DNA of 32,000 nucleotides, taken from the NCBI RefSeq assembly GCF_000020385.1, contig NC_010814.1:1470001-1502000 (forward strand), in the 5' to 3' direction. This document shows positions 2,657 to 32,000 of the stretch, piece by piece (position 1 is the stretch's first letter; the number at the start of each line of letters is the position of its first letter). This stretch comes from Trichlorobacter lovleyi SZ (GTDB lineage Bacteria > Desulfobacterota > Desulfuromonadia > Geobacterales > Pseudopelobacteraceae). The notes below the pieces were generated by a model. The model was not told the origin of the DNA. It did no database searches and worked only from the letters and a program-made list of their open reading frames with translations. The position numbers and the translations under genes are program-made.

Positions 2657-3379
2657 ATGTTTGTAGCGAGATCCGCAAGCGAAGTACTCGATGAAATTCG
2701 GCGAATGAAGGGGCTTGGCTCCGATGCTGCTCTGGGAGATGTATTCGGGGTCAGGCAGTCGACGGTGTCTTCTTGGCGGGCTCGTAACTCGCTACCCTAT
2801 GAAGAAATTATCGCGTTCTGTGTCAGAGAGGGGATTTCTACCGATAATCTGTTGCTTCATCAAGGACCGGTCAGAATTATTAAAGAGAAGATCGGAGACT
2901 CCGGCAGGCCGGTTACCGTAACGATTGAGATCGATGATTTGTTCACCACACGGTTGATGCGAGAACTTGGGGAGAGGACAGTAGAGTGGCTTGCCGGGGA
3001 AAGCGGCTTAGAAACGGCCAGGGTTGAAGATATAATGGCCGGTCAGGATCTGCCTACCGTTGACGAGCTTGAATCCATTGCCGATACGCTGGATGTTAGT
3101 ATGAGTTGGCTGGCCCAGAGAAGCACGATTTCAAGTGAAAATTGGATGTTTGAGTTCTTCAAGAAGGGTGGTAAGGCAGTCTTTCCAGCGGAAATTTTCA
3201 AAGCATATTTGCTGGCGGCAGAAAATTACATCGAAAAAATGCAGGGCCTCGTAAAGTTATCCCCAGAACTCAAGGCTGATGTCATTACTACGGCATGTCG
3301 GGTACATATGAAAGAAACACCGAACAGTACAGATGTAAATGTGGAGTTGATCAGATATCTTCTGATGTTGCCAAGGTAA
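2657..3379 (+). CDS. phage CI-type repressor with two HTH modules, no S24 peptidase domain
   Basis: The N-terminus (EVLDEIRRMKGLGSDAALGDVFGVRQSTVSSWRARNSLPYEEIIAFCVREGISTDNLLLHQG) resembles the Phage_CI_repr HTH. A second XRE-like module follows (TVEWLAGESGLETARVEDIMAGQDLPTVDELESIADTLDVSMSWLAQ). GAGG lies 5 nt before ATG at 2657. The in-frame ATG at 2624 overlaps the palindrome and lacks an RBS. Confidence 0.6.
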   Translation: MFVARSASEVLDEIRRMKGLGSDAALGDVFGVRQSTVSSWRARNSLPYEEIIAFCVREGISTDNLLLHQGPVRIIKEKIGDSGRPVTVTIEIDDLFTTRLMRELGERTVEWLAGESGLETARVEDIMAGQDLPTVDELESIADTLDVSMSWLAQRSTISSENWMFEFFKKGGKAVFPAEIFKAYLLAAENYIEKMQGLVKLSPELKADVITTACRVHMKETPNSTDVNVELIRYLLMLPR

Positions 3380-3384
3380 AACCG

Positions 3385-4650
3385 TTACTTCTTCTTGACT
3401 AGCAGTCCAACTGCAGCAGCTTTATGTTCTGGTGCAAGATGGGCATACCGTAGGGTCATTTTCAGATCAGAATGCCCCAGCAGCTCACGAACCGTATTCA
3501 GATCAACTCCAGCCATCACCAACCAGCTTGCGAAATGGTGCCGCATATCGTGCCAGCGAAAGTTTTTTATCTGAGCAGCATCCAATACGGCCTTCCATGA
3601 CTTGTTCACGTTGTCCAAAGTCTTTTTGCCATCCCTGCCCGGAAATACCACGTCACCACTCGATTGCTTTTTCCAGTCCTTCAGGGCATTCAAAGCGATA
3701 CTGTTCAAGGGGACATGGCGGGTCTTTCCGCTTTTGGCTTTGTCGCCAATAACCGTAACCAGTGCCTTTTTCATATCTACCGAGTCCCAGGCCAAGCTGG
3801 CAAGTTCTCCCCAACGTATGCCGGTATTGAGAGAGACGAGGATCATGGGCTTCAAGTGATCCGCAAATGAGACAGAGTTCAGATCGGTATATAACGGGTA
3901 ACCTCTCTCCTTGCGCCACAAGTTAGCGGTTGCCCGTTCTGCCCGTGCCACTTCCTCCCGATCATCAAGAGCTTTCAAAAGTCGCTTTTCTTCATCGGCA
4001 GACAAGAAGCGCACTTTTGCCACGCTGTCGACTTTTAACGGTTTCACTTTTGCGAGGGGATGATGTTCAAGATGTTCCCATTCGACCGCCTTTGAGAGGA
4101 ATGCCTTTATCGCTGTGAGATCACGGTTACATGTTGCGGGTCGTTTGCTGTCCTTCAATCGCCCGGTACGCCACTTATCGACGATCAGAGGAGTAATTTC
4201 CGTAAGTGGCAGTTCAAGGAAATCAGAAAAACGGGATTTGAGCCTTTTGACAGTGGCTTTGCCATCTTTTCGTTGAGCTTCCGCCCAAGGAGAATATTCA
4301 TCTTCGAGGAAGGACTTGAAAGTGTGACTCACCTTGGGATGCTGCTTTTCAACTTTCGGGTTTATACCGTCTTTGATATTGCGAAGAATTTTTTCAGCTT
4401 TATCTCGCGCCTGGGCTGGTGTATATAAAGTGTGTCTGCCGATAATGATCCGTGATTGTTTACCACCTGGCAGTCTATAGCGAACAAGATACGTTTTTGC
4501 TCCAGGAATTATTTCACCTTTTTTGGAGACCGTGTCAGGATAAATCTTAAGCGTGAATCCTTTGAGCTTTGTATCGTTGATTTCAAAAGTCTTTTCTTTA
4601 GAATTGACCTTATTGCTTCGCAACAGCTCAACACCAATGTTTTCTTTCAT
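3385..4650 (-). CDS. int: tyrosine integrase, P4-type with N-terminal Arm (DUF4102-like) domain
   Basis: The Arm-like N-terminus is LKGFTLKIYPD...KTYLVRYRLPGGKQSRIIIGRHTLYTPAQARDKAEKILRNIKDGINP. The catalytic region is NTGIRWGEL ... WHDMRHHFASWLVMAGVDLNTVRELLGHSDLKMTLRYAHL. GGGGG RBS lies before ATG at 4650. The gene is adjacent to the tRNA-derived att repeat. Confidence 0.85.
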   Translation of the reverse strand: MKENIGVELLRSNKVNSKEKTFEINDTKLKGFTLKIYPDTVSKKGEIIPGAKTYLVRYRLPGGKQSRIIIGRHTLYTPAQARDKAEKILRNIKDGINPKVEKQHPKVSHTFKSFLEDEYSPWAEAQRKDGKATVKRLKSRFSDFLELPLTEITPLIVDKWRTGRLKDSKRPATCNRDLTAIKAFLSKAVEWEHLEHHPLAKVKPLKVDSVAKVRFLSADEEKRLLKALDDREEVARAERATANLWRKERGYPLYTDLNSVSFADHLKPMILVSLNTGIRWGELASLAWDSVDMKKALVTVIGDKAKSGKTRHVPLNSIALNALKDWKKQSSGDVVFPGRDGKKTLDNVNKSWKAVLDAAQIKNFRWHDMRHHFASWLVMAGVDLNTVRELLGHSDLKMTLRYAHLAPEHKAAAVGLLVKKK

Positions 4651-4837
4651 ATTACCCCCTGCAACTTCATGGAGCACTCATGGAGCACATTTTGAATATA
4701 TCACGGGGTAATACGGCAAACAATGATAAACAAGCAACCAGACTCAATATGCTGTTTATAATAGGTTTTATTGATTATTATTGTATATGGCCGTTCACTG
4801 GAGAAAATATAATTTCGGCTTTCACACGGCAGGGGTC

Positions 4838-4866
4838 ACTGGTTCAATCCCAGTAGCGCGCACCAA
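4838..4866 (+). repeat. tRNA 3'-end fragment (T-arm + acceptor 3' strand + ACCA); att junction shared by elements A and B
   Basis: ACTGG TTCAATC CCAGT forms a T-arm, followed by AGCGCGC, A and CCA. No complementary 5' acceptor strand (GCGCGCT) and no D or anticodon arms are present upstream, so this is not a complete tRNA. The 19-bp TCCCAGTAGCGCGCACCAA (4848-4866) is repeated at 24314-24332. Confidence 0.75.
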
Positions 4867-4940: not shown

Positions 4941-6677
4941 ATGCCGAAGTCGTTTCTGGCCCTGAGAAACGGTCGCTATCACTACGTGCGCCGTGTCCCG
5001 TCTGACCTTGTATCACTTTTCCCCTCACCAGTAATATCACGCAGTCTTCACACCACTGACCGTAAGTATGCTACTATTATCGCGTCGGCATGGGAATATA
5101 AGACCCATCAACTCTTTCTCCAGCTGAGGTCAGGTATGCTTGATGCACAACTTATGGACTATTTGATTGCCAGGTATCTCAACTCTGGCCTGCAAGCACT
5201 TGAGAGCATGGCTTATGGCAGGAAACCGCGCCGTGAAGAGTTTTCGACACCAGTGGCAATACGTGAACAATTTTCACCGTATGTTGCTGACCGGTCTGGT
5301 TTAGTGGCAGAAGAGATTCAGCAGATGCGTCAAGCTGTAATCAATAAAAATATTGAAGCAGCATACCCATATTTAGAAAGCTATTTAAAACCTGTTCTAA
5401 AAAGCGAATACAAGGTTAGTAGATTGTCTACTCATGAACACCTTGAACTGTCAGTGCGGCTCTTACAGACGCTTAGAACATTAGCATTGGCAGAAGAAGA
5501 GATTTTGAACGGCAACCTTGATCCGTTAACGGAATTAAGCTCAAAAGTTAAGGCGGGGTTGGAAAAACCTTATTTGGCGCTTGATAAAGTCATTGAACGT
5601 TATTCAGAGAAGTATAAAACAGATAATCATCCTATGGAGAAACGTGCTGAACAACACCTTGATACGGAATTGGATGTCATCCAAGAGATTTTTGGTAATG
5701 TTAGCCTTGATTTTGTCAACTCGCGTGAGGGCATTGTTAATTGTAAAAAAATCCTTAAAAAATACCCGTTGAATCGAGTGCAGCGTTTTGGTAAAAGGCC
5801 GAACCAAGAGGCCAAACCTAGTGAAAGGGTCCGTTCATTACAAGATATTATCAAGAATGAAGAGAGCTGTGAGGTGATCAAGCCTCAGACGGCAAATGCC
5901 TATATCAAGCGCCTCAAGGCAATAATAGATTATGCGAACGACTATGAAGAATTTGATCAGAGGAACAGGTGGGAAAATGAGTTGTTTCCTGTTAGAGCGG
6001 AAGACGAAAAGAAACGTAATCCTTATGATCAAGAAGATATAGATAGGTTGATAACCGCCATTTGCTCTCAAAACCTTTGGGTGTATGGCGATCCAAAGCC
6101 TGAAAGATTTTGGATTATCTTGATAGCGTTGTTGCAGGGGTTTCGGTTGGGTAATATTACTCGCCTTGGGAAGAAAGATGTTTTTCGGCGTAACGGAGTC
6201 TGGGTGTTTCGCCTAGTGAAAGGAAAGACGAAAAACACCGTTGATATGGTCTATCCGATCAATGATTGTTTGATTTTACTTGGTTTTATTGAGTGGGTGG
6301 ATTCATTGCAGCGAGACAATTTGTTCCAGGACACTTCTAAGCAGGCAAGTGTCTGGTATAACCGTATGGACCGCAATGAAGACGGCTCAGTTAAAGCTGC
6401 TGGATTCGAATACTCCCATGTTACCAAGGATGAATCGAAATGTTTGTATAGTCTGCGCCATAATTACGGCGGAGAGGTGTATTCGGTGACTACAGATATT
6501 AAGGCAACGGCAGCAGCAATGGGACACGCACCGATAGCAGGTGCTATAACCAATCGCTATATAGGTGAACTGAAGTTGAAAACAAGGCAGGAACTTGCCA
6601 GTAAGCTGAAATTCGATATCGACTTGGATGCGTTGGAGAAGCGAGTTGAAGAGCTATTCGGGATTAAGCCAAGCTAA
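4941..6677 (+). CDS. int: tyrosine integrase with DUF6538-like N-terminal domain
   Basis: The N-terminus (LRNGRYHYVRRVPSDLVSLFPSPVISRSLHTTDRKYA) matches the DUF6538-type pattern. The C-terminal catalytic region is LLQGFRLGNITRL ... LYSLRHNYGGEVY ... AAAMGHAPIAGAITNRYIGE. It is the first gene inside the att repeat. Confidence 0.8.
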   Translation: MPKSFLALRNGRYHYVRRVPSDLVSLFPSPVISRSLHTTDRKYATIIASAWEYKTHQLFLQLRSGMLDAQLMDYLIARYLNSGLQALESMAYGRKPRREEFSTPVAIREQFSPYVADRSGLVAEEIQQMRQAVINKNIEAAYPYLESYLKPVLKSEYKVSRLSTHEHLELSVRLLQTLRTLALAEEEILNGNLDPLTELSSKVKAGLEKPYLALDKVIERYSEKYKTDNHPMEKRAEQHLDTELDVIQEIFGNVSLDFVNSREGIVNCKKILKKYPLNRVQRFGKRPNQEAKPSERVRSLQDIIKNEESCEVIKPQTANAYIKRLKAIIDYANDYEEFDQRNRWENELFPVRAEDEKKRNPYDQEDIDRLITAICSQNLWVYGDPKPERFWIILIALLQGFRLGNITRLGKKDVFRRNGVWVFRLVKGKTKNTVDMVYPINDCLILLGFIEWVDSLQRDNLFQDTSKQASVWYNRMDRNEDGSVKAAGFEYSHVTKDESKCLYSLRHNYGGEVYSVTTDIKATAAAMGHAPIAGAITNRYIGELKLKTRQELASKLKFDIDLDALEKRVEELFGIKPS

Positions 6678-9744: not shown

Positions 9745-10509
9745 TTAGTCTGAGTTTCTGGTTTTGATTCTCCAGCTTTCATTTCCTGTTTCGACGATTT
9801 CGCAGTGATGGGTAACCCTGTCCAGAAGTGCCGTGGTCATTTTGCCATCACCGAACACCTGCGGCCATTCTCCAAAGGTCAGGTTAGTGGTAATGATAAG
9901 CGATGTTCTCTCGTACAGCTTTGATATAAGGTGAAACAGCAGCTGTCCTCCAGCCTTTGAGAACGGCAGATAGCCCAGTTCGTCCAGCACAACCAGATCA
10001 AGCCTGCAGAGTGCCTCTGCAAGCTTTCCTCCGCGTCCGCTTAGCTTTTCCTGTTCTAGTTGGTTGACCAGATCCAGCAGGTTGAAGTATCGGCCACGCT
10101 TACCGTTTCTGATCACCTGCCGTGCAATGGCAATGGCCAGATGGGTCTTGCCGGTACCGGTTCCACCTACCAGAATGATATTACTCTTTTCAGTAAGAAA
10201 GCCTCCCTCATACAGCATTCTGACCTGTGTCTCGTTGATCGGTGTATCCGTAAACTCAAAGTGATCCAGGTCCTTCTCTACTGGAAACCTTGCCTGACTC
10301 AGGCGGTAGCGGATACTTCTGATTCTCCGTTCAGCCAGCTCTGCATTAAGCAGCTCAAACAGGATCTTCTCCGGTGTGGCCCGTTGTTTGATGCCTGTGG
10401 CGATCAGCTCGTCACAGGCAGTCTTCATGCCATGCAGCCCAAGGGTCTCCATGGCCTTTTGCAGTTTCTCACGCAGTAGCACAGGCACCTCCGGCAAGCA
10501 GCAGGTCAT
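9745..10509 (-). CDS. istB: IS21-family helper ATPase IstB
   Basis: It has Walker A ([13 protein letters not shown]) and Walker B (LVVLDELGY), the typical IstB length, and sits downstream of and overlapping istA. An alternative GTG start at 10482 is preceded by GGAGG. Confidence 0.9.
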
Positions 10510-11983
10510 ACCGCCTGCAGTCAGCTACAGGCGGTATGATCAAAACCGGCAGTTTTGCTGCAGGATCTGCCGTTGGTGTCGGTTCTTCATCGTTTCGGGA
10601 CAACAGATTAAGCACGACATCCCGACTGATGGTATTGGCTGCCAATGCATCAGTGCATGCCTGTGTTACTGCTTCAATGCCATAGTAGGAGACAACCGCC
10701 AGTATCCCGACAAACTGCCGGTCACCATCACGGTGCTTGGCAAGGGCACTACGGATTTGCTCAATAGATTCCGGCAAATTCCATTCCTTAAACGGTGCAC
10801 CGTTTCTGAGTGCTCCCGGCTTCTTCTTCAGTGCCTCCAGATAGTGCCAGGGATCATAGAAGACCTGATCACGACCAAAGTGCCGTTTGTGGAATCCTAC
10901 GGTTCTGCCGCTCTGGACAAAGGTCAGACGATCAGCATAGGCCCGTACCGTGACCGGGTTGCCAACAGCAGAGACATGGACGCTGTAACGGTTGCGGTCA
11001 AATGAGACCAGGGAGGTAGAAGATACCTTGGCATCGCTTTCCAGATAACCGTCAAACGGAACCGTTACCGTGAGAAGCTGCCGGCGTTCCTCCTTAAACA
11101 GGTCATTGATCGTCAGGAGTGGGTTGTCAGGATGTTTCTGGGTTGCTGCGTAGTCCAGACATTGTTCCTGCAGCCACTGGTTTAGCTCAGAAAGGTTGGT
11201 AAATGTCCGCCGTTTGGCGAAGAAACGCTTGCGCACAAGGCCTACCTGATTCTCTACCTGCCCCTTCTCCCAGCCTGCAGCAGGAGTGCAGGCTATCGGT
11301 TCAAACAGGTAGTGGGAGGCCAGACTCAAAAACCGACGATTGAATACACGATCCTTGCCCATCAGGACTTTGGTTACTACGGTTTTTAGGTTGTCGTAGA
11401 TACCACGCCGACAGGCACCACCAAAGAAGCTGAATGCCTTGATATGAGCATCCAGAACCATCTCCAGGCTCTCACGTGTGTAGGCCACGCAAAATGGCAT
11501 CCGACTGTTACAGAGGCGAAACTGAGCAATCTTGACCTTTACGATGATCCCACCCAACTCAATCTGCTCATAGCTCCAGTCAAACTGAAATGCCTCACCA
11601 GGATCAAAGGATAGCGGAATAAAGGCTGCGGCTACGCCGCCGCCGGTCTCTTTGCGCTGCTGCTGGATGTAACGACGGACGCTGTCATAGCCACCTTCAA
11701 ATCCTTCCCGCTGTAGCGTCTCAAACAATAACTGGGCACTACGACGATGGCGGACTGGCTTTACGGCATCTTCAGACAACAGTCCTTTGAGACGTTCTTC
11801 AAATGCAGCAAGCTTTGGCCTGGGCTGTTCGGTGCGGGTATAAACCTGATCGGTTACGTCACTTCTGATGATTTTCTTGACGGTGTTCTTAGACAGATGA
11901 AACTCACGGGCTATCTGCCTGATTGGTTTCTTGTCCCGGTGGTAAGCCTGGCGGATTTTACGGATGGATTCCACTAGCAGCAT
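10469..11983 (-). CDS. istA: IS21-family transposase IstA
   Basis: The N-terminal HTH is [33 protein letters not shown]. The DDE core region includes FQFDWSYE and the protein is ~500 aa. Confidence 0.9.
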
Positions 11984-21815: not shown

Positions 21816-22382
21816 ATGGCAGGCAAATCTATCGGCTATGTCCGCGTCAGCACCAGCGACCAACATACAGACCGGCAACTGGCCGGACTGGAACTGGACC
21901 GCGTTTTCACAGACAGCGCATCAGGTAAAAACACTGATCGGCCACAACTTGGAGCCATGCTTGCCTATGTCCGTGATGGCGACGTAATCCATGTCCACTC
22001 TCTTGACCGCCTTGCCAGGAATTTGATCGACCTGCGTCGAGTTGTCAGTGACCTGGTTGAGCGTGGCATCGCAATTCACTTTCATACTGAGAATCTTGTC
22101 TTCACTCCAGATGAAACGATCAATCCGATGTCAACGCTGCTGTTGTCCATGCTGGGCGCCGTGGCAGAGTTCGAAAGAAGCCTGATCCGAGAGCGACAGA
22201 AAGAAGGCATTGCAGCGGCAAAAACCCGAGGCGTGTATCGTGGGCGTCGGCCCTCTCTGACACCTGATCAGATTGCCGAGATCAAACAGCTGGCCTCAAC
22301 AGGAGTCCCCAAAGCCAAGCTTGCTCGCCGTTATGACGTGTCGCGTGAAACTATCTATCAGGCCCTCAAATCAGCTCTTTGA
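21816..22382 (+). CDS. serine recombinase (resolvase/invertase family)
   Basis: IGYVRVSTSDQHTDRQ (catalytic Ser), HSLDRLARN, AVAEFERSLIRERQKEGIAAAK and the C-terminal HTH KLARRYDVSRETIYQAL. AGGAGG RBS. Confidence 0.9.
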   Translation: MAGKSIGYVRVSTSDQHTDRQLAGLELDRVFTDSASGKNTDRPQLGAMLAYVRDGDVIHVHSLDRLARNLIDLRRVVSDLVERGIAIHFHTENLVFTPDETINPMSTLLLSMLGAVAEFERSLIRERQKEGIAAAKTRGVYRGRRPSLTPDQIAEIKQLASTGVPKAKLARRYDVSRETIYQALKSAL

Positions 22383-22533: not shown

Positions 22534-23559
22534 ATGCAACCAGAGTTGGGTCATGTTGTGATGATTCAAGCAGATCAGGTATTGACTGCAATGCTGCAGA
22601 TGGGCTGGCAAGTAGGTAACAAGCCGCCCGGCTATGCTGCTATTCAAGCCCGCCTGCGCCAGCTGTTCGGCAACGGCGGAGACGGCAACCGGATGCGTGA
22701 ACTGCGAGAGGCAGCCATTCGTATGGCAACTGGACAGCCTGCCAGTGATGACGACCTGGGTCATGCCGACTTGCCGCCGCTGCCTGAGGAGATTCAGCAG
22801 GAGTTGCAGGCCATGGCAATCGCTTTTGAAGAGCAACTGACACGTCTGGATCATCGCTTGGCTCTATGCCTCGACAGTGCCTTGTCCGATATCAGATCTG
22901 AGGCCAGGATCAAGATTAACACGGTCAAACGCGACGCAGAGGAACGCTTGGCAGTTGCACATGAAGAACTCGACCAAGCTTTGACCGACTTACAGGTATC
23001 AGGTGCAACCCTCAGCGCTTTACAGGAAGAACTCACGAACACTCGAGAACTCGCTGCCAAAACATCTGGTCGTATCGAGGCCATGGAGCATGAGCAATCT
23101 GCCAAGACAGCCCGAATCAGCAGTCTAGAGAATGAACTGACAACGGCACACGCTGAAATAGCTACCTCAACGGGCCGGTTGGAAACTCTGCAGTCCGATC
23201 TACAAACAAGGATCAAGCACATAGAGATGCTTGATGCACGCCTGGCTGATGCCAGAGAGTCTGCTACAACGGCCATATCCAGAGCCCAGTCACTTGAAAA
23301 TGAGATGAAGAGCGGGGCTGAACAGGTGCAATGTCTTCAGGATGAACTTACATCCAACAAGGAGTCATCGGCTAGAAATTCTGGGCGTTTGGAGGTGCTT
23401 GAGCAGGAGCTGGCAGCCAAAACAGGCCGTATCATCGACCTGGAGGCCACGTTAACTGAGGCTACCACTGCCATGGCCACCGCCACCGGGAGGGCCGAGG
23501 TGTTGGAGCAGGAGTTGACAGCGGCCAGGGCCCATACCAGGAAGGGAGCCAAACCATGA
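22534..23559 (+). CDS. coiled-coil protein with KfrA_N-like N-terminal DNA-binding region and internal ~35-aa repeats
   Basis: GGGAGGAGG RBS. The N-terminus is ..ADQVLTAMLQMGWQVGNKPPGYAAIQARLRQLFG... About 230 aa of heptad-rich sequence follow, with a recurring TGRxExLEQELxAKTxRIxxLExxLTxA motif (SGRIEAMEHEQ, TGRLETLQSDL, SGRLEVLEQEL, TGRAEVLEQEL). Confidence 0.6.
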   Translation: MQPELGHVVMIQADQVLTAMLQMGWQVGNKPPGYAAIQARLRQLFGNGGDGNRMRELREAAIRMATGQPASDDDLGHADLPPLPEEIQQELQAMAIAFEEQLTRLDHRLALCLDSALSDIRSEARIKINTVKRDAEERLAVAHEELDQALTDLQVSGATLSALQEELTNTRELAAKTSGRIEAMEHEQSAKTARISSLENELTTAHAEIATSTGRLETLQSDLQTRIKHIEMLDARLADARESATTAISRAQSLENEMKSGAEQVQCLQDELTSNKESSARNSGRLEVLEQELAAKTGRIIDLEATLTEATTAMATATGRAEVLEQELTAARAHTRKGAKP

Positions 23560-24306: not shown

Positions 24307-24332
24307 GGTTCGTTCCCAGTAGCGCGCACCAA
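24307..24332 (+). repeat. right att repeat: tRNA 3'-end copy (19 bp identical, 26 bp with 2 mismatches)
   Basis: GGTTCGTTCCCAGTAGCGCGCACCAA compares with GGTTCAATCCCAGTAGCGCGCACCAA at 4841-4866. The T-stem 5' strand is not intact here, so it is not a functional tRNA. Confidence 0.75.
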
Positions 24333-24344
24333 ATACAGCACATG

Positions 24345-24377
24345 GGCCGACTGATCTAGTTTCAGTTGGCCTTTTTT
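24345..24377 (+). terminator. rho-independent terminator immediately after the tRNA 3'-end copy (native tRNA terminator)
   Basis: GGCCGACTGA-TCTAGTT-TCAGTTGGCC (10 bp, one G-U) followed by TTTTTT. Confidence 0.75.
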
Positions 24378-24390
24378 GTATCTCTACCGG

Positions 24391-24418
24391 TTGAAAACTG
24401 GACGAAGAACGATATAAC
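24391..24418 (+). promoter_or_regulatory. possible sigma70 promoter of the pilus-like cluster
   Basis: TTGAAA, a 16-nt spacer, then TATAAC. A second TATAAT is at 24424-24429. This rests on weak pattern evidence only. Confidence 0.25.
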
Positions 24419-24479
24419 AGGTATATAATTTAAGGCCTTATCTTGAGTTTTGCTGGAACTATGAACAGGGTACTTTTGA

Positions 24480-25007
24480 GTGCATGCCATGTCTGTCAGA
24501 GCCGCATACCTTCATAATCAGAAGGGGTTTACCTATCTGATCGCGCTGCTCGCCGTGATGCTGATCGGTATCATGCTTGGTGCTGCCGGTACCAGTTGGA
24601 AAAACGTCATGCAGCGTGAGCGCGAAGAAGAACTGCTGTTTCGCGGCATGCAGATTCAGGACGCCATTGGTCGCTGGCATCAGCCGCAAGGAAATGTGCA
24701 ACAACATGCTGCCACGCCGTTGAATGACCTGAAAGATCTTTTAAGGGACCCTCGTACTCCGGCAACCGTGCGCTACCTGCGAAAGCTGTACCGCGATCCC
24801 ATCACCAATCAGGACTGGGTTCTGATTGGTGAACCGGCCCGTGGCATCATTGGTGTTGCCAGCAGTAGTACCGAGCGGGTTATCAAGAAGGATAACTTTC
24901 CTGATCAGCTACAGGATCTGGTCAACAAAGAACGTTATGATCAGTGGCAGTTTGTCTATAAGCCGACACAGAAAACAGTGCAACAGGCAGTTCAGGTTTC
25001 CAGGTAA
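24480..25007 (+). CDS. prepilin-type (pseudopilin/minor pilin-like) protein
   Basis: ...HNQKG/FTYLIALLAVMLIGIMLGAAG is an N-terminal cleavage/methylation-type motif followed by a hydrophobic helix. Position +5 is Ile, not Glu. The start is either GTG at 24480 or ATG at 24489. Confidence 0.7.
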   Translation: MHAMSVRAAYLHNQKGFTYLIALLAVMLIGIMLGAAGTSWKNVMQREREEELLFRGMQIQDAIGRWHQPQGNVQQHAATPLNDLKDLLRDPRTPATVRYLRKLYRDPITNQDWVLIGEPARGIIGVASSSTERVIKKDNFPDQLQDLVNKERYDQWQFVYKPTQKTVQQAVQVSR

Positions 25008-25040
25008 ATGTTTGTGTGCAGCAAGGAAGGAAGGTCATTT

Positions 25041-28000
25041 ATGACTAACAAATTTCCAGTAAACCATCTGATTGTTTTGTTTGTACTCTGGATAGTTGCC
25101 CTTTTTAGTGCCGTTCCGGCGGTTGCATCCACAACATTGGATACTGCTTTTAATCCGGTGCTGTCTAAAGCCGGTCAGATAACCGGTATTGTTCCGCTGG
25201 TAAACGGCAAGGTCGTGGTGATTGGAAGTTTCTCCTCCATCAGCGGGGTAGCGCGTAAAAATATTGCGGTGTTGAATCCGGATGGCAGTGTTGATACCAG
25301 CTTTCAGCTGGATAGCCGGATACCGTCCGACATGATCTATGCTGCTGCAGTGCAGAGTGATGGCAAGATTCTGATCGGTGGTCAAATATCGATTATAGGT
25401 GCAACAGAATCGCAAAACTATCTGTTTCGCGTAAGCAGCACCGGTGTCTGGGACGAGACCTTTAAGCCGGGGCGGTATGTCTATACACCAGGTGTTACCT
25501 ATGGTCTGGATGGTGCTGTCAGGGCTATTACCGTGGATGGCAATGGCAAGATTCTGGTGGGGGGCGATTTTACTGCACCAAAGAATCATATTGTTCGGCT
25601 TAACCCCTTGGATGGTTCGGAAGATACCTCGTTTAATCCCGGAACAGGGGCCGATGGGACGGTTACCCATATTGCCCGGCAGTCCACCGGCCATATTATT
25701 ATTGGCGGCTCCTTTGCTACCGTGAATGGTACTGCCAAGGCCAAGGTGGCACGTCTGTCCGCAACAGGCTCCTTGGATGCCGCTTTTGGCACCGGGCTTT
25801 ATGGTGGCAGTCTGCAGGCCCTGGCGGTGCAGTCCGATGACAAGGTGCTGCTGGGCGGCAGTTTTTTCGGGTTGAACGGCACCTATGATCTGCCCAAGCT
25901 GATTCGGACTTCTGCCGATGGCGTGCTGGATGCGAGCTTTACGCAATTGGTGCCCTATTACGATAATCTAGGGGAGATTCAGTATACCGCTGCAGCCAAC
26001 TATTTTCAGGCCATTACCAGTCTTTTGGTTTTGCCGGACAAGATTGTAGTAGGCGGCTGGTATAGCTCCATTATCATGAGCGGAAACCCGCTTTACCATG
26101 ATGCCAGGATTTTTATCCTTGAAGCGGGTAATGGAGCCTATACGAGTTTGATGACCTTTAAAAGCGGGCCGACGAATACCGATGGCTCTACCCACTCGGA
26201 TGTCTTTGCCCTGGGAAAACGCAGTGACGGCCAACCCTTGGCTGGTGGCAGTTTTACCCAGAATGATTCCAATGAAGACTACTACTATGGCCTTTGCTTG
26301 ATCTCCAGCACCACTTGGCAGCCTGTCACTACCTATAAGCCGGTGGTGGGTGGCCAGCCTAATGTGAAGTCACTGGCCCTGCAAGCCGATGGCAAGCTGC
26401 TGGCAGCCGGCGATTTCTACCTGGTAGGCAGCACCCCTGAAAACGGTCTGGCCCGTTTCAGCACCACCGGTACGCTGGATACTACACTGGTTACTCCGCT
26501 TGTTAAAGGCGGGACAATCAATAGTGTGCTGGCACGCAGCGACGGCAAGCTGATTGTAGGTGGTTATTTTTATTATATATCTGACACTAGCGTATATCGT
26601 GATATAGCCTTGCTCAGTGCTGGTGGAGTTTTTGAATCAGGAAACGCGGTGGGGATGCACAACGCTCTGGCCCTAACGACAGACAACAAAGTGCTGACCG
26701 CCTTGTATCATAACCCTGGCATTAAGGGATTGAACGCTGATTTAACGGTTGATTCAAGTTTTGTCCCGGGTACCGGAATACCCAATAGTCAGACAGAGTA
26801 TGTCAATACTGTAGTGGTTCAACCTGATGGCAAGATTCTCGTGGGGGGCTCGTTTTCAAGTTTCAGTGGTGCTGTGCGGCAAAACATTGTGCGGCTGAAT
26901 AGTGATGGCAGTATTGATAATACCTTTGCGTCTCCTGTTTTTACCGTTTTTTACGGCCAGAGTGAGGTGTATGCAATAGCGGTGCAGCCTGACGGCAAGA
27001 TCCTGCTGGCCGGGCGCTTCTCTACGGTGGGCGGCGTTGCCAGCCCTACCGTGGTGCGACTGAACAGCAACGGCAGTGTGGATACCTCATTTCAGGCACC
27101 GTTCGGAGACTCCGGTTCCACTGCCTACGCACTGGCCCTGCAGCCAGATGGCAGGATACTGGTGGGCGGGAGTATGCAGATCGTTGAAGGAGAAAGCATC
27201 TATAATAGTCTGGTGCGGCTGTATCCCAACGGCAGTCGGGATAGCTCCTTTGGTAGTTCCATCACCGGCACCGTCAAGTCGATTGTGCTGAACGGCACGC
27301 AGATTGTGGCGGGTGGTACCATCGAGGCAGTGGACGGCACAGCCCGCCAAGGTCTGGCACGCTTCACTACGACTCCGGAATATCTTTTGACCGTAACAAG
27401 ATCGAGCGTAGCTGGTGGGAGCATTACCGCCAGCACCGGCACCTTCGGCTGGAGTGGAACGGTCGGTATGGCGGCTTATAACAGTGGAACCAGTGTAACG
27501 CTGACCGCCCAGGCGGGGGCGGGCTACATCTTCAGCGGCTGGTCCGGCGAGGGCTGCAGCGGTACCGGCAGCTGTACGGTTGCCATGTCTGCAGCACGTA
27601 GTGTCACCGCTACGTTTACTGCAATACCCCAAGTGGCCCTGACGGTAACACTGGGAGGCAGTGGCGGCGGTTCAGTCATCAGTACTCCTGCAGGTATCGA
27701 TTGTCCCGCTTCCAGCTGTTCCGGCCAGTTTGCTAGCGGTAGTACGGTCTCACTCACCGCTGTCCCCAACGCCAGCTCAACCTTTGATGGCTGGATTGGT
27801 TGTCAAACTACGAATGGTACGGTTTGTGGTGTGATCATGAATACTCCTAGAGAGGTGACTCCGCTCTTTAACTCAGCAAAAGCCCAGATCGGGGGTGTCG
27901 GTTATGCCACCCTGGCAGAGGCGTTTGCCACCAACTTTGGTACAACGCCGATACTCCTGCTCGACGGTAACCTTGCCGAGTCGTTGACCGTTACCAAGGC

Positions 28001-28124
28001 CGTAACCCTGAAAGGCGGCTATAATGCTACGTTTACAGCATTAACCGGACTTTTCAGCAACCTGACAGCTCCCTTGACTATCAGTACCGGCAGTCTGACC
28101 GCCTCCATGCTGGTCATTAAATAA
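25041..28124 (+). CDS. exported ~1027-aa protein: ~11 delta-60 (DUF5122-type beta-propeller) repeats + two InlB-B-repeat-like domains
   Basis: AAGGAAGGAAGG RBS. The signal peptide is MTNKFPVNHLIVLFVLWIVALFSAVPAVA/STT. A recurring unit reads LNxDGSxDTSF...VQxDGKILxGG..F. Near the C-terminus there are two YxLTV...GTSVTLTAxxxxGYxFxGWxG modules. Confidence 0.8.
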   Translation: MTNKFPVNHLIVLFVLWIVALFSAVPAVASTTLDTAFNPVLSKAGQITGIVPLVNGKVVVIGSFSSISGVARKNIAVLNPDGSVDTSFQLDSRIPSDMIYAAAVQSDGKILIGGQISIIGATESQNYLFRVSSTGVWDETFKPGRYVYTPGVTYGLDGAVRAITVDGNGKILVGGDFTAPKNHIVRLNPLDGSEDTSFNPGTGADGTVTHIARQSTGHIIIGGSFATVNGTAKAKVARLSATGSLDAAFGTGLYGGSLQALAVQSDDKVLLGGSFFGLNGTYDLPKLIRTSADGVLDASFTQLVPYYDNLGEIQYTAAANYFQAITSLLVLPDKIVVGGWYSSIIMSGNPLYHDARIFILEAGNGAYTSLMTFKSGPTNTDGSTHSDVFALGKRSDGQPLAGGSFTQNDSNEDYYYGLCLISSTTWQPVTTYKPVVGGQPNVKSLALQADGKLLAAGDFYLVGSTPENGLARFSTTGTLDTTLVTPLVKGGTINSVLARSDGKLIVGGYFYYISDTSVYRDIALLSAGGVFESGNAVGMHNALALTTDNKVLTALYHNPGIKGLNADLTVDSSFVPGTGIPNSQTEYVNTVVVQPDGKILVGGSFSSFSGAVRQNIVRLNSDGSIDNTFASPVFTVFYGQSEVYAIAVQPDGKILLAGRFSTVGGVASPTVVRLNSNGSVDTSFQAPFGDSGSTAYALALQPDGRILVGGSMQIVEGESIYNSLVRLYPNGSRDSSFGSSITGTVKSIVLNGTQIVAGGTIEAVDGTARQGLARFTTTPEYLLTVTRSSVAGGSITASTGTFGWSGTVGMAAYNSGTSVTLTAQAGAGYIFSGWSGEGCSGTGSCTVAMSAARSVTATFTAIPQVALTVTLGGSGGGSVISTPAGIDCPASSCSGQFASGSTVSLTAVPNASSTFDGWIGCQTTNGTVCGVIMNTPREVTPLFNSAKAQIGGVGYATLAEAFATNFGTTPILLLDGNLAESLTVTKAVTLKGGYNATFTALTGLFSNLTAPLTISTGSLTASMLVIK

Positions 28125-28126
28125 CC

Positions 28127-29344
28127 ATGCCGCTCTTTATCTGCAAACTGGGCAGTCCCGATGGCGCTATCCTGCAGCGAGAGCTGGAGGCGGTTGACGA
28201 AGCACAGTTGCGGGCAGGGCTGGAGGCGCAGGGTTATCACGTTTTTTCGCTGCAACGGTCCGGCCTGAAACTGTCGTTCAACTTTTTGAAGCCGCGCGGC
28301 GGTCGCATCGACAACCGGGAACTGTTGGCCTTTAATCAGGAACTGGTGGTGCTGCTGAAATCCGGTATGCCGATTGTGCCGGTGCTGGATGCAATCCTTG
28401 AGCATCGCCGAAAGGCCGGTGGTACTTTTGCCCAGGTGCTGGGACAGGTGCGGGAGGATGTCAAAGGAGGGGCTGCGCTCTCCACTGCCCTGGAGCGGCA
28501 CGGCAGGCTGTTTCCGCCGCTGTATCTTGCGTCTGTCCGGGCAGGAGAGCGGACCGGTGAGGTGCCCCAGACCATCCGTCGCTACATCCTGTTCCTGAAA
28601 AGGTCTGAGGAACTACGTAAAAAGCTGATCTCTGCACTGATTTATCCAAGTATTCTCGTGGTGGTGGCGGTACTGGCAATCATGTTGCTGCTGATCTATG
28701 TGGTTCCCACCTTCAGTCATGTCTATGCCGATTCCGGGTCTCAACTGCCCCTGCTGACCCGTCTGCTGATCAGCTTTACCAATACCTTGCAGTCGACTGT
28801 TGTGGTCTGGCTACCGGGGATGGTCGCGGCTGTTGTTGGCCTGCGCAGCTGGAGCCGCTCTGACGGAGGACGTCAGCGGATAGACCGCTGGAAACTGGCA
28901 CTGCCGGTGTTGGGTGACCTGTTTTTCGGGTATGCCGTATCGGTCTTTTCCCGTACTCTGGCCACGCTGCTGGGTAGCGGTATACCGATCGTTGAATCGT
29001 TGCGGATGTCTTTGGGCACCCTGAACAACCGCCTGCTGGAGCAAGGCATGGTCATAGCCATCCATCAGGTGGAAGAGGGAGGACGGCTCTCGGTGGCCCT
29101 TGAACAGCAGCAGTTGATGCCGCCGCTGGCATTGCGGATGTTGGGGGTAGGAGAGGCAACCGGATCAATGGAGGAAATGCTGTCCGATGTTGCCGAACAC
29201 CTTGAGGCCCAGGTTGAGGAGCGCTTGCAGCTCCTGACCACTGCCATTGAACCGGCAGTCATGCTGATTATGGGCCTGGTGATCGGTATCATCATCGTGG
29301 CCATGTATCTGCCGATCTTTAAACTTGCCGGAACAGTGGGGTAG
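28127..29344 (+). CDS. type II secretion / type IV pilus platform protein (GspF/PilC family)
   Basis: It has two T2SSF-type repeats, three hydrophobic segments and a length of 405 aa. The start is 2 nt after the upstream stop. Confidence 0.85.
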   Translation: MPLFICKLGSPDGAILQRELEAVDEAQLRAGLEAQGYHVFSLQRSGLKLSFNFLKPRGGRIDNRELLAFNQELVVLLKSGMPIVPVLDAILEHRRKAGGTFAQVLGQVREDVKGGAALSTALERHGRLFPPLYLASVRAGERTGEVPQTIRRYILFLKRSEELRKKLISALIYPSILVVVAVLAIMLLLIYVVPTFSHVYADSGSQLPLLTRLLISFTNTLQSTVVVWLPGMVAAVVGLRSWSRSDGGRQRIDRWKLALPVLGDLFFGYAVSVFSRTLATLLGSGIPIVESLRMSLGTLNNRLLEQGMVIAIHQVEEGGRLSVALEQQQLMPPLALRMLGVGEATGSMEEMLSDVAEHLEAQVEERLQLLTTAIEPAVMLIMGLVIGIIIVAMYLPIFKLAGTVG

Positions 29345-29354
29345 GAACAGCACT

Positions 29355-31079
29355 ATGGAGATGTCACAACACAAGAAACTCAGCCAGATCATGACGGAGC
29401 TGGATGCCCTGACTGCCGAGGAGATCGATCTGGTCCTGGCTCATCAGGCCGCGCAGGGGGGACGTTTTGGAGAGGCTGCCCGGGAGCTTGGCCTGGTGGA
29501 TGAAGCAATGGTTGCCAAGGCGCTTGCCGCCCAGTTTGGTCTGCCGTTTGTGGATCTTGGCAGTTTCAAGGTGGATCACGGGCTGTTCGACACCCTCCCG
29601 CCTGATCTGATGTACCGCTATCACTTTGTGCCGCTTTCCCTGGATGACGGTGTGTTGAACATAGCCATTGCCGATCCTACGGACGTTCTGATGCTGGACG
29701 AACTTGAACTGGTACTGGATCGGCCGGTCACCTTTTCTGTTGCCGCAACGCCAGCCATCAACAAACTGCTCAAGGGGGGAGAAGGGACCCGCCGGGTCTT
29801 GCGGGATGTGTCTGAGGACTTTCTGCTGCAACTGGTAAAAGAGACCGATAGCGGCGAAGAGGTTCTCTCTCTGGAGAGCCTGTCGTCAGATACCGCCTCC
29901 AGCCCGATCGTCAAACTGATCAATACCACCCTGCTGGACGCCCTGGGCCGTCGTGCCAGTGATATCCATGTTGAAACCGGTCATGACGGGGTCACCATCA
30001 AATACCGGATTGACGGGGTGCTTTACCAGGCCAATGATCCGATTGACCTCCACTTTCAGGGACCGATCATCTCCCGCCTCAAGATCATGAGTGAGCTGGA
30101 TATTTCTGAACGACGCATTCCTCAGGATGGCCGTTTCAAGATCCGTTTGGGGGACAAGTCGATTGACTTCCGGGTGTCGATCATGCCCAGCGCCCATGGC
30201 GAAGATGCGGTCATCAGGATTCTTGATAAAGAAAGTATTGCCGCCGAGATGAAAGGTTTAAGTCTTGAGCATCTTGGCATCCATCCCCGCGAACTGACCC
30301 GTATCAGGCGCAAGATTCGCGAACCGTACGGCATGGTGCTGGTGACCGGCCCCACCGGTTCAGGTAAGACCACCACCCTGTACGCTGCCTTAACCGAAAT
30401 CCATACCGGTCTGGACAAGATCATTACCATTGAAGACCCGGTTGAATATCTGCTGAAGGGGGTGCTGCAGATCCCGGTCAATGAAAAAAAGGGACTGACC
30501 TTTGCCCGCGGTCTACGCTCCATCCTGCGCCATGACCCGGACAAGATCATGGTGGGGGAGATCCGCGATCCCGAAACCGCCCAGATCGCGGTGCAGTCGG
30601 CCCTGACCGGACACCTGGTCTTTACCACGGTCCATGCCAACAACGTGCTGGATGTGATCGGGCGTTTTACCCACATGGGGCTCGATCCCTACAACTTTGT
30701 CTCTTCACTGAACTGTGTCATTGCCCAACGGCTGGTTCGTAAGGTCTGTAAAGAGTGTCGCCGGCCGGTCGACCTGACGGATCAACAGTTGCGCGAGGCG
30801 GCCATTGACCCTGCCTGGCGTGCCACTGCCACCTTCTATGAGGCGGTTGGCTGTGATGCCTGTAACAGTACCGGCTATCGGGGGCGTTCCGCCATTATTG
30901 AGATGCTGGAGATGAATGATGAGCTGAGGGATATGATCGTATCCAAGACGCCGGCGGTGCGGCTGAAACAGGTTGCCCGTGAACAGGGGACGGTCTTTCT
31001 GCGGGAGGCAGCAGTAGAAAAGCTGTGTGCCGGTGATACCACGTTGCAGGAAATCAACCGCGTGACATTTGTGGAATAG
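29355..31079 (+). CDS. GspE/PilB-family secretion ATPase with MshEN/T2SSE_N-type N-terminal domain
   Basis: Walker A is GPTGSGKTTT and the Asp box/Walker B is KIMVGEIRD. The tetracysteine motif is CKECRRP...CDACNSTGYRGR. The N-terminus reads ...AKALAAQFGLPFVDL. ATG at 29355 lies after the GspF stop at 29344. Confidence 0.9.
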   Translation: MEMSQHKKLSQIMTELDALTAEEIDLVLAHQAAQGGRFGEAARELGLVDEAMVAKALAAQFGLPFVDLGSFKVDHGLFDTLPPDLMYRYHFVPLSLDDGVLNIAIADPTDVLMLDELELVLDRPVTFSVAATPAINKLLKGGEGTRRVLRDVSEDFLLQLVKETDSGEEVLSLESLSSDTASSPIVKLINTTLLDALGRRASDIHVETGHDGVTIKYRIDGVLYQANDPIDLHFQGPIISRLKIMSELDISERRIPQDGRFKIRLGDKSIDFRVSIMPSAHGEDAVIRILDKESIAAEMKGLSLEHLGIHPRELTRIRRKIREPYGMVLVTGPTGSGKTTTLYAALTEIHTGLDKIITIEDPVEYLLKGVLQIPVNEKKGLTFARGLRSILRHDPDKIMVGEIRDPETAQIAVQSALTGHLVFTTVHANNVLDVIGRFTHMGLDPYNFVSSLNCVIAQRLVRKVCKECRRPVDLTDQQLREAAIDPAWRATATFYEAVGCDACNSTGYRGRSAIIEMLEMNDELRDMIVSKTPAVRLKQVAREQGTVFLREAAVEKLCAGDTTLQEINRVTFVE

Positions 31080-31211
31080 GTGGTACACTTTTTAAACCGA
31101 ACAAGTTTCTTATCTGCAGGATACATGTGACATCTGCCTGACTGCCGGCCGGTAACACCTTCCTCCACCCCTCCTGGCCAGCCTAGGCCGCTGTTAATCA
31201 GGAGGTGGCTT

Positions 31212-32000
31212 ATGAACCTTCAGTCCGGCCCGATAACGTTTACTTTTATAGTAGGAACCCTCCTCTTAAACCTCCGCTTCTTGTCCCTGCCTCGGATTCT
31301 TGTCCTTAGCCTGCTACTCACTGCGGTTTCGCCGGCATTCGTGCTTGCTGACGATATCTGCGGCTGGGGTACGTCCACCAAGTGGAAGGTTAAGATGCAT
31401 CTGACCCAGGTGCTGAGCAAGTCGGGAATTCTGCAATCAGGGCCTGACTGTACTGCCAACTATGTGCTGGCGCTGGACCATGTCTCGGATGTAAGAGGCG
31501 AGTTCATCAGCAGCGGAACGCCTGGCCAGTATCAGGGAGACCTGACGAGCACTGAGGTCGTGAACAACATGATGGACATTCCGTTCACCGGCAGGCCTGA
31601 GTGCAGCTATGGGAATGTCTACTTTACCGAAATAGGTACTGGAGAAGGAGCTGAAAGTGCTGTTCCGTTTACCATCGATACTGCGATGGGGAAGTACACC
31701 ATCAGATTTCCACATACCGGGGTTGATATTCCATTCAATTATATCACCATGTATGGAGGGTATTCGGGAACACTTAATAAAGAGATCAACGGCGGGTTCA
31801 TTATAGACTATCCAGGCATGGTACTTGCCGAAAGCCCATCCGATCCGGTCACTACCCTTGAATTTCCGCTGCCAGGCGCCTCCCCCCAAATCATCACCGG
31901 CGAAACCACCTTTCCTCACCAGCAGTACCCTGAAATTCCGGTCACCTGGTCATGGGAGTTGACACCTGATGCCGGCGGGGCTGAAAAGGAGCTGGGCGCA
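31212..32000 (+). CDS. exported hypothetical protein, 3' end beyond the window
   Basis: It is not in the ORF track because there is no stop in the window. AGGAGG lies 7 nt before ATG at 31212, and the frame stays open to position 32000. The N-terminus ...LPRILVLSLLLTAVSPAFVLA/DD is signal-peptide-like. The track ORFs 31220-31459(-) and 31437-31919(-) are shadows. Confidence 0.6.
   Translation, partial: MNLQSGPITFTFIVGTLLLNLRFLSLPRILVLSLLLTAVSPAFVLADDICGWGTSTKWKVKMHLTQVLSKSGILQSGPDCTANYVLALDHVSDVRGEFISSGTPGQYQGDLTSTEVVNNMMDIPFTGRPECSYGNVYFTEIGTGEGAESAVPFTIDTAMGKYTIRFPHTGVDIPFNYITMYGGYSGTLNKEINGGFIIDYPGMVLAESPSDPVTTLEFPLPGASPQIITGETTFPHQQYPEIPVTWSWELTPDAGGAEKELGA

Follow-up and report, generated by a model that had tools for sequence, protein, structure and literature searches.

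A delta-60-repeat propeller gene within an apparent Pul-type type II secretion locus of Trichlorobacter lovleyi, and the C-terminal tail it shares with neighbouring genes

Two type II secretion systems (T2SSs) have been described in the Geobacteraceae, and Pul, an atypical T2SS of Pelobacter carbinolicus and Geobacteraceae, is encoded by pulF-pulE-pulM-N-O-P-pulQ-pulG-oxpG together with a third pseudopilin gene, tklG (Aklujkar et al. 2012, PMC3543383). The Pul-2 cluster of P. carbinolicus runs tklG-2, a hypothetical gene, a gene for an RHS repeat protein, pulF-2, pulE-2, pulM-2 and so on to oxpG-2 (PMC3543383), and in G. sulfurreducens the secretion of OmpB is reported to require the Pul pseudopilin OxpG (Mehta 2006, as cited in PMC3543383). 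The subject of this report is a stretch of the genome of Trichlorobacter lovleyi SZ, positions 1,470,001 to 1,502,000 of NC_010814.1 (the window, 32,000 nucleotides), in which a pseudopilin gene is followed by genes for a giant propeller protein with delta-60 repeats, an inner-membrane platform protein (PulF/GspF) and an assembly ATPase (PulE/GspE). Gene content and gene order indicate that these four genes are one arm of the already described Geobacter-type (Pul) secretion system. The reading favoured here, with a probability of roughly 0.55, is that positions 24489-31079 are the tklG-X-pulF-pulE arm of a Pul-type (PilMNOPQ, three-pseudopilin) T2SS with embedded cargo genes, the propeller gene being co-transcribed with the machinery.

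The locus was reconstructed over ~45 kb by walking conspecific T. lovleyi contigs, including L091, L092 and L093 (L numbers, here and below, are handles for individual contigs or loci). Proteins encoded in the neighbourhood are identical to ACD95172 and ACD95173 of T. lovleyi SZ. Its forward part runs from tRNA-Val through the pseudopilin gene, the giant gene, pulF and pulE to genes for an RHS/YD protein of 1464 aa and a small RHS protein of 331-340 aa. The convergent part, from its nearer genes outwards, comprises genes for a TIG/CarboxypepD_reg protein of 1095 aa and an M6 peptidase, an insertion sequence (IS), and genes for a 281-aa protein, a C39-like peptidase, a 948-aa protein, a C10 peptidase and a TIG protein of 223 aa, and then those for two N_methyl proteins (153 and 162 aa), a TPR-secretin (780 aa) and PilP-like, PilO-like, PilN and PilM-like proteins. 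This second arm of the machinery lies on the opposite strand, ~20 kb downstream of the window end. The secretin, as found in L093, has TPR, Secretin_N and Secretin domains, both pseudopilins of that contig have the canonical Glu5 and match PF07963, and the PilM/N/O/P-like proteins are assigned from weak Pfam matches. Together, L093 and the window reproduce the Pul gene set of tklG, pulF, pulE, pulM-pulQ, pulG and oxpG (compared with Table S4 of PMC3543383), the pul, tkl and oxp names being given by position and Pfam match rather than by comparing sequences with those of the published genes. No gene for a prepilin peptidase (PilD/GspO) was found in the ~45 kb reconstructed locus. A sequence-only reading of the window had recognised a gene set of type IV filament or T2SS type, which the Pfam and NCBIfam domains of PulF and PulE confirm, and had correctly reported that the window holds no secretin, prepilin peptidase, PilMNO/GspLM or major pilin gene. 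The secretin, the assembly genes and further pseudopilins, all missing from the window, are present in the same locus, in the downstream arm, and the module is not the compact one that had been supposed. The cluster matches the already annotated Pul atypical T2SS of Geobacteraceae (PMC3543383).

The likeness to Geobacteraceae Pul extends to the gene set, to the orders tklG-[X]-pulF-pulE and pulM-N-O-P-Q-G-oxpG and to the number of pseudopilins, which is three. As in P. carbinolicus Pul-2, a large protein is encoded in the slot between tklG and pulF, although it is an RHS protein there and a DUF5122 propeller in T. lovleyi. The T. lovleyi system differs from Geobacteraceae Pul in being split into two convergent arms ~20 kb apart, and in the presence of at least nine genes whose products end in Flg_new_2 modules and a conserved C-terminal domain (CTD). 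With the classical Gsp T2SS (GspC-M; Klebsiella Pul, Vibrio Eps) it has in common an ATPase of the GspE family, a platform protein of GspF type, a secretin, prepilin-type pseudopilins of which one, as GspK, is without Glu5, and (in T. lovleyi putative) Sec-dependent substrates, often encoded beside the machinery. Unlike the classical systems, the T. lovleyi system has PilM/N/O/P-like proteins in place of GspC/L/M, only three pseudopilins, an MshEN N-domain on the ATPase and N-terminal TPRs on the secretin, and all equivalog models score under their cutoffs.

The giant protein and at least eight of its neighbours end alike, in Flg_new_2 followed by the CTD, and finish L[IVT][IV][KRQ]. In the giant protein this tail takes up the last ~250 residues, with two Flg_new_2 modules and a CTD of ~90 aa ending LVIK; a C-terminal domain of about this size had been noticed in the sequence-only reading, and profile searches show it to be conserved and widespread. 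The neighbours that bear the tail are the small RHS protein, the 1095-aa TIG protein, the M6, C10 and C39-like peptidases, a 948/940-aa protein, a 792-aa protein (MAM) and a 1017-aa protein. The tail-bearing proteins have predicted Sec-type signal peptides, read from their sequences, and the domains found on them are C10, C39_2, M6, MAM, GH123, beta-helix and thaumatin. Several, being hydrolases, resemble the usual substrates of T2SSs. At least nine genes for putative exoproteins with a Sec signal and the tail lie between and inside the two arms. The association recurs outside this locus. In a sister Trichlorobacter, the junction between pulF and pulE (L101, 10646-13423) is occupied by a gene for a 925-aa thaumatin + Flg_new_2 + CTD protein, and in a different Geobacter lineage (L017/L097) tklG, a TIG gene and pulE stand beside the genes for three CTD proteins, namely a glycosidase of family GH123, a beta-helix protein and one of 378 aa. 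Because the Flg_new_2+CTD tail is common to ~eight neighbouring exoproteins, several of them hydrolases, and because a CTD gene has also been inserted in the operon of the sister strain, the propeller is more likely to be secreted cargo than a pilus tip. Of the two roles that the sequence-only reading had left side by side, that of a dedicated secretion substrate is therefore the better, and that of a tip adhesin the weaker.

Searches of Pfam and NCBIfam gave no family for the CTD, even at E<=10. In a set of 1.84 billion proteins, a profile built from 12 CTD sequences matched 6857 representative clusters with the limit set at E<=1e-3 and 2921 of them with the stricter E<=1e-10, and among the top 148 clusters the domain stands at the very C-terminus in 96, often in tandem. 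Tandem C-terminal pairs end NFVLQK or similarly, and partial copies occur 10-23 times inside proteins of 4-7 kaa (representatives P0176-P0323). Word-indexed homologue searches, whether started from a single CTD or from an alignment of 36 CTD sequences, yielded no more than a few fragments of ~95 aa, and tblastn found no match to a CTD in the PLSDB plasmids. An AlphaFold2 (AF2) model of the domain is all-beta with a predicted local distance difference test (pLDDT) score of 94, and Foldseek matches its fold to right-handed beta-helix lyases and esterases, all of them non-significant; the CTD is modelled, in short, as a small beta-helix-like stub. A parallel is offered by C-terminal sorting domains of secreted proteins such as the CTD of the type IX secretion system (T9SS; TIGR04183), which is likewise a discrete, mostly beta domain of ~90 aa at the C-terminus of many otherwise unrelated large exoproteins, with a hydrophobic stretch and a Lys/Arg end, and with several carriers encoded near a secretion machinery. 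Neither the whole giant protein nor the isolated CTD matches TIGR04183/Por_Secre_tail at E<=10, however, and the model is a beta-helix stub rather than an Ig-like sandwich. In further contrast to the T9SS domain, this CTD can be internal, tandem or N-terminal, and it looks like a portable beta-helix module more than a strictly terminal signal. No evidence was found for cleavage of the CTD or for a dedicated sortase, and no relevant paper, judged by title or abstract, turned up in a literature search on a C-terminal secretion signal common to several T2SS substrates. The new element at this locus is a shared, very widespread C-terminal module on ~nine co-located exoproteins.

The coordinates of the four genes and of the features within them are collected in the table. 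Their order and near-absent spacing, already seen in the sequence-only reading, are borne out by the open reading frames (ORFs) and by public gene calls on contigs with an identical ATPase, which give the same starts and the same intergenic gaps of 33, 2 and 10 nt (pseudopilin/giant, giant/pulF and pulF/pulE, respectively); the identical PulE protein is found on at least 22 public contigs. The pseudopilin gene begins, according to the gene callers, at the ATG at 24489 and not at a GTG at 24480, and its stop at 25007 stands. A terminator pattern scan found no strong-stem terminator between the four genes, and a few weak terminator-like hairpins within the operon, with stems of 5-8 bp, are no more frequent than in shuffled sequence. 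Because the gaps are of 2-33 nt and no strong-stem terminator-like site lies between the genes, the four are probably transcribed as one, as the sequence-only reading had also concluded.

Table. Positions of the features of the propeller-containing arm and its flanks, in window coordinates
Feature	Position	Strand	Description and source
tRNA-Val(CAC) 3' remnant, attR-like repeat	24307..24331	+	exact over 18 nt, 24314-24331; alignment and repeat search
Former tRNA-Val terminator	24344..24378	+	hairpin 24344-24372 (11-bp stem) and T-run; terminator scan
Pseudopilin gene	24489..25007	+	172 aa; start per gene callers
Giant propeller gene	25041..28124	+	1027 aa; ATG 25041; strong ribosome-binding site AAGGAAGGAAGG upstream
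Predicted Sec signal peptide of giant protein	25041..25130	+	MTNKFPVNHLIVLFVLWIVALFSAVPAVA followed by S; read from sequence
Fourteen delta-60/DUF5122 repeat units	25173..27377	+	aa 45-779; PF17164, TIGR02608, iterated repeat hidden Markov model (HMM)
Two Flg_new_2 (divergent InlB B-repeat) Ig-like modules	27381..27875	+	~aa 781-945; PF18998, E=3e-15, 2 stretches
C-terminal domain (CTD)	27843..28121	+	profile match aa 935-1027, core ~aa 946-1027, ends ...SLTASMLVIK; local HMM and alignments
pulF/gspF (inner-membrane platform)	28127..29344	+	405 aa; two T2SSF domains
pulE/gspE (assembly ATPase)	29355..31079	+	574 aa
RHS/YD-shell gene, 5' part, runs off window	31212..32000	+	1464 aa in L002; PF05593, E=6e-56; Sec signal predicted from translation

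The repeats of the giant protein match PF17164 (DUF5122) at E=6e-98 in nine stretches, with 321 bits against a cutoff of 27, and TIGR02608 (delta-60) with 249.8 bits against a cutoff of 76.5. These families, and PF18998 in two stretches, had been anticipated in the sequence-only reading, as had the Sec signal, which is predicted from the sequence. The count of ~11 repeats given there was too low, as the iterated repeat HMM finds 14 units, which would be enough for two seven-bladed beta-propellers. No sequence relative of the giant protein was found in the PDB, and a Pfam scan of it gave no match to PilY1/PilC (PF05567) or vWA, in agreement with the earlier statement that the large protein is unrelated to PilY1. 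A literature search for 'delta-60 repeat' returned no paper mentioning the term. Between T. lovleyi and T. thiogenes the propeller is 66% identical, compared with 88% for TklG, 88% for PulF and 94% for PulE, and such fast divergence of the propeller fits what may be an exposed or secreted protein.

PulF matches PF00482 (T2SSF) at E=1e-53 in two stretches, as expected of a polytopic platform, and scores 327 bits with the GspF model TIGR02120 and 261-291 bits with PilC models, all of them under the equivalog cutoffs. PulE matches PF00437 (T2SSE) at E=1.5e-128 and, at its N-terminus, PF05157 (MshEN) at E=3e-18; its scores of 536 bits for PilB and 507 bits for GspE are both under the cutoffs. Its Walker A motif, GPTGSGKTT, and its CxxC...CxxC motif, CKEC...CDAC, are those of a GspE/PilB-family ATPase. 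Residues 1-140 of PulE (29355-29780) give a sub-threshold match to the MshE-type motif for binding of cyclic di-GMP (c-di-GMP), 27.4 bits against a cutoff of 38, and a PilZ-domain gene (3307-4023) lies directly upstream of the pseudopilin gene in L087. The system may be subject to regulation by c-di-GMP.

The pseudopilin has a leader, MSVRAAYLHNQKG followed by FTYLI, with a G/F junction and a hydrophobic helix, Ile in place of Glu at +5 and no match to PF07963. Its family comprises 325 proteins and, in a separate search, 285 genome loci, all Geobacterales by name, and all 21 aligned members lack Glu5 and conserve an invariant REREEELLFRG after the transmembrane helix. The AF2 model shows an N-terminal helix of 54 residues and a small beta head (pLDDT 82). 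Neither a profile search against PDB sequences nor a Foldseek search with the model gave a significant PDB match, and the protein is not assignable to GspH, GspI, GspJ or GspK. Because the family sits in Pul-type clusters in many arrangements, the window pseudopilin probably represents the third, TklG-type, pseudopilin of a Pul system, an assignment made by position. In L103 the order is collinear (tklG-pulF-pulE-pulM..pulQ-pulG-oxpG-TIG), in L157/L158 the pseudopilin gene adjoins pulG/oxpG (pulQ-tklG-pulG-oxpG), and in L089, L113 and others it is divergent from pulE. In L095, a gene of 164 aa that adjoins a CTD gene was considered as a hidden TklG and rejected. In most Geobacterales the pseudopilin gene is not beside pul genes and overlaps that for a conserved ~170-aa protein without a Pfam match (MVLGFNHN...; L088, 9502-13452, and L090, 9493-13453). 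Genes for a histidine kinase with a HAMP domain, a response regulator of the sigma-54 type, an NHL/Big protein of ~900 aa and multihaem cytochromes come next, 3' of this overlapping pair.

Conservation of the giant gene was followed in 160 loci from genomes and metagenomes, each taken around a member of the pseudopilin family. A propeller gene lies 3' of the pseudopilin gene only in a clade whose pseudopilins share 87% identity or more with that of the window, and this clade corresponds to T. lovleyi and T. thiogenes (L001-L010, L098, L099 and L101). At least six other lineages (L011/L087, L012, L015, L044, L102 and L103) have pseudopilin-pulF-pulE without an insert. The sequence-only reading had held that absence of the giant gene from syntenic clusters would mark it as an unrelated insertion, and such absence is found in part, in these lineages. 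On these comparisons the giant gene is not a conserved part of the module; it is a lineage-specific insert between the pseudopilin gene and pulF in T. lovleyi and T. thiogenes.

The upstream boundary of the operon is the terminator hairpin at 24344..24378, which has the same sequence as that found 3' of an intact tRNA in L001. The sequence-only reading had spoken of a tRNA terminator; the hairpin is there, although no tRNA gene is, since ARAGORN and an Rfam scan found none in the window and only a tRNA 3' end is left. An intact tRNA-Val(CAC) lies just upstream of the pseudopilin gene in L001, L002, L004, L007, L010 and L087 (ARAGORN). Positions 24307-32000 are 99.97% identical to a contig of a T. 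lovleyi metagenome-assembled genome, and the match to L001 begins exactly at 24307. The 3' remnant of tRNA-Val was left by an integrated island, and the intact tRNA-Val of this genome must be located beyond the window start. Window positions 1-24331 contain two tandem islands integrated at tRNA-Val(CAC), with a 45-nt tRNA 3' half at 4821-4865 and the 18-nt exact 3' end at 24314-24331. They carry tyrosine integrases at 3385-4677 (minus) and 4941-6677 (plus), a Mu-like transposase at 10469-11983 (minus), a resolvase at 21816-22382, and cargo that includes an iron-containing alcohol dehydrogenase (Fe-ADH), a sigma-54 activator, a molybdopterin oxidoreductase and DUF169. A 341-aa ORF (22534-23559), situated after the resolvase and before the end of the island, has no Pfam match and contains repeated coiled-coil-like segments (for example TGRLEVLEQELAAKTGRIIDLEATLTEA...).

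Two other kinds of gene accompany Pul-type clusters. RHS/YD proteins recur beside Pul-type genes in T. lovleyi (L001, 11858-16252), in P. carbinolicus (Pcar_0129, from a literature table) and in L050 (12045-18668, 2207 aa). The 1464-aa RHS protein of T. lovleyi has a helical C-terminal extension of ~190 aa after a DPFG motif and is without the CTD, and in related contigs the gene 3' of it encodes a 331-340-aa RHS+Flg_new_2+CTD protein. All Pul-type loci examined (L093, 7036-7707; L087, 7847-8731; L089, 10598-11521; L097, 17112-18092; L103, 19110-20039) encode a small IPT/TIG protein of 223-326 aa, its gene lying beside oxpG or that of TklG type. This protein may be a conserved substrate or else a part of the machinery that has gone unrecognised, for example a pilotin.

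It is possible, although rather unlikely, that the insertion was incidental, such that the tail-bearing genes are mobile surface-protein cassettes at a tRNA-Val hot spot and their products are exported independently of PulE and PulF. The giant gene is missing from syntenic tklG-pulF-pulE clusters of at least six other lineages, two tandem islands are integrated at the adjoining tRNA-Val within the window, and the third-codon-position GC content (GC3) of the giant gene, 0.555, is under that of pulF and pulE, 0.66-0.68. CTD genes also occur away from the system, as three of them (L094, L095 and L096) have no T2SS gene within 10 kb. Because the operon junctions accept genes that are not cargo, such as the 376-aa ORF with a Fic motif, HPFEDGNGR, read by eye at the pulF/pulE junction of L007 (9772-10902), the adjacency could reflect an insertion hot spot by tRNA-Val; an IS element lies within the operon or array in L092. 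The low GC3, the CTD genes away from the system and the junctions that accept other genes also weigh against embedded cargo, and so do several further observations: most loci with the pseudopilin and pulF/pulE have no CTD gene within 10 kb, a 683-aa protein of L069 (13934-15985) has its CTD-like domain at the N-terminus, directly after the signal peptide, the window pseudopilin is equated with TklG by position and not by sequence comparison with Pcar_0128/Pcar_0595, and the link of the proteins to the system comes from genes and synteny. An incidental origin is harder to reconcile with the crowding of nine or more tail-bearing genes into a single T2SS locus, between or inside its two arms, with two separate within-operon inserts whose tails are alike (the giant gene, and in L101 the thaumatin gene), and with the repetition of the association in a second lineage (L017/L097). 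The gaps of 2-33 nt, with no strong-stem terminator-like site, point in addition to co-transcription.

If the propeller were a tip adhesin, the E5-less pseudopilin encoded upstream would carry it at the end of a pilus or pseudopilus, as minor pilins do PilY1. Absence of Glu5 is a property of tip-located GspK-like subunits, and beta-propellers are common adhesin modules. The pseudopilin family is never found with Glu5, and the giant gene is directly 3' of the sole pseudopilin gene in this arm, at a distance of 33 nt. As with PilY1/PilC, the tip adhesins of type IVa pili, a large beta-propeller gene stands beside a minor-pilin-like gene in a type IV filament locus. The giant protein differs in that it has no sequence relation to PilY1/PilC (no PF05567 match, and none to vWA), is not conserved with the pseudopilin and has a tail common to hydrolases. 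That tail is found on peptidases and glycosidases, which are not adhesins, and whereas the pseudopilin is conserved across Geobacterales (285 genome loci), a propeller follows it in one small clade only, the same slot being filled by an RHS protein in P. carbinolicus (PMC3543383). A tip adhesin is thus judged very improbable. The machinery might also be an MSHA-like (mannose-sensitive haemagglutinin) type IV pilus whose tail-bearing neighbours are unrelated surface or S-layer-type proteins, given the MshEN domain on the ATPase, a PilB score slightly above the GspE score, and assembly proteins that are PilM/N/O/P-like rather than GspC/L/M. This seems quite doubtful, since no abundant subunit resembling a major pilin is evident, the best score of the platform is with the GspF model, and OmpB secretion in G. 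sulfurreducens has been reported to depend on the homologous system (Mehta 2006, as cited in PMC3543383).

On the favoured reading, that of a Pul-type T2SS with embedded cargo, the propeller would be exported by Sec across the inner membrane and would fold in the periplasm. A short PulG/OxpG pseudopilus driven by PulE and PulF would then expel it through the secretin PulQ, with the E5-less TklG-type pseudopilin capping or priming the pseudopilus, by analogy with GspK. The propeller would finally be either released or kept at the cell surface, and the tail that these proteins share may serve as a recognition or surface-retention module. A more specific idea, which is tentative and rather improbable, is that Flg_new_2+CTD is a recognition or surface-retention tag that lets a Pul-type T2SS handle otherwise unrelated cargo, including the propeller, RHS proteins, peptidases and glycosidases.

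Substrate recognition by T2SSs is a long-standing open problem, and to our knowledge no common linear signal is known. If the tag idea is true, the T. lovleyi locus would be a supermodule of machinery plus tagged cargo, and the tail, whose domain family has more than 6800 clusters and no annotation in any database, would be the first candidate T2SS substrate signal that is discrete and transferable. Should the locus prove to be an insertion hot spot only, there would still be a very large unannotated C-terminal domain family, as well as a sharper picture of the Pul system in Geobacterales, including the third pseudopilin without Glu5. The locus offers a known kind of T2SS interleaved with ~nine putative substrates that share one C-terminal module, and tag-swap and deletion experiments would be straightforward in cultured T. 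lovleyi SZ.

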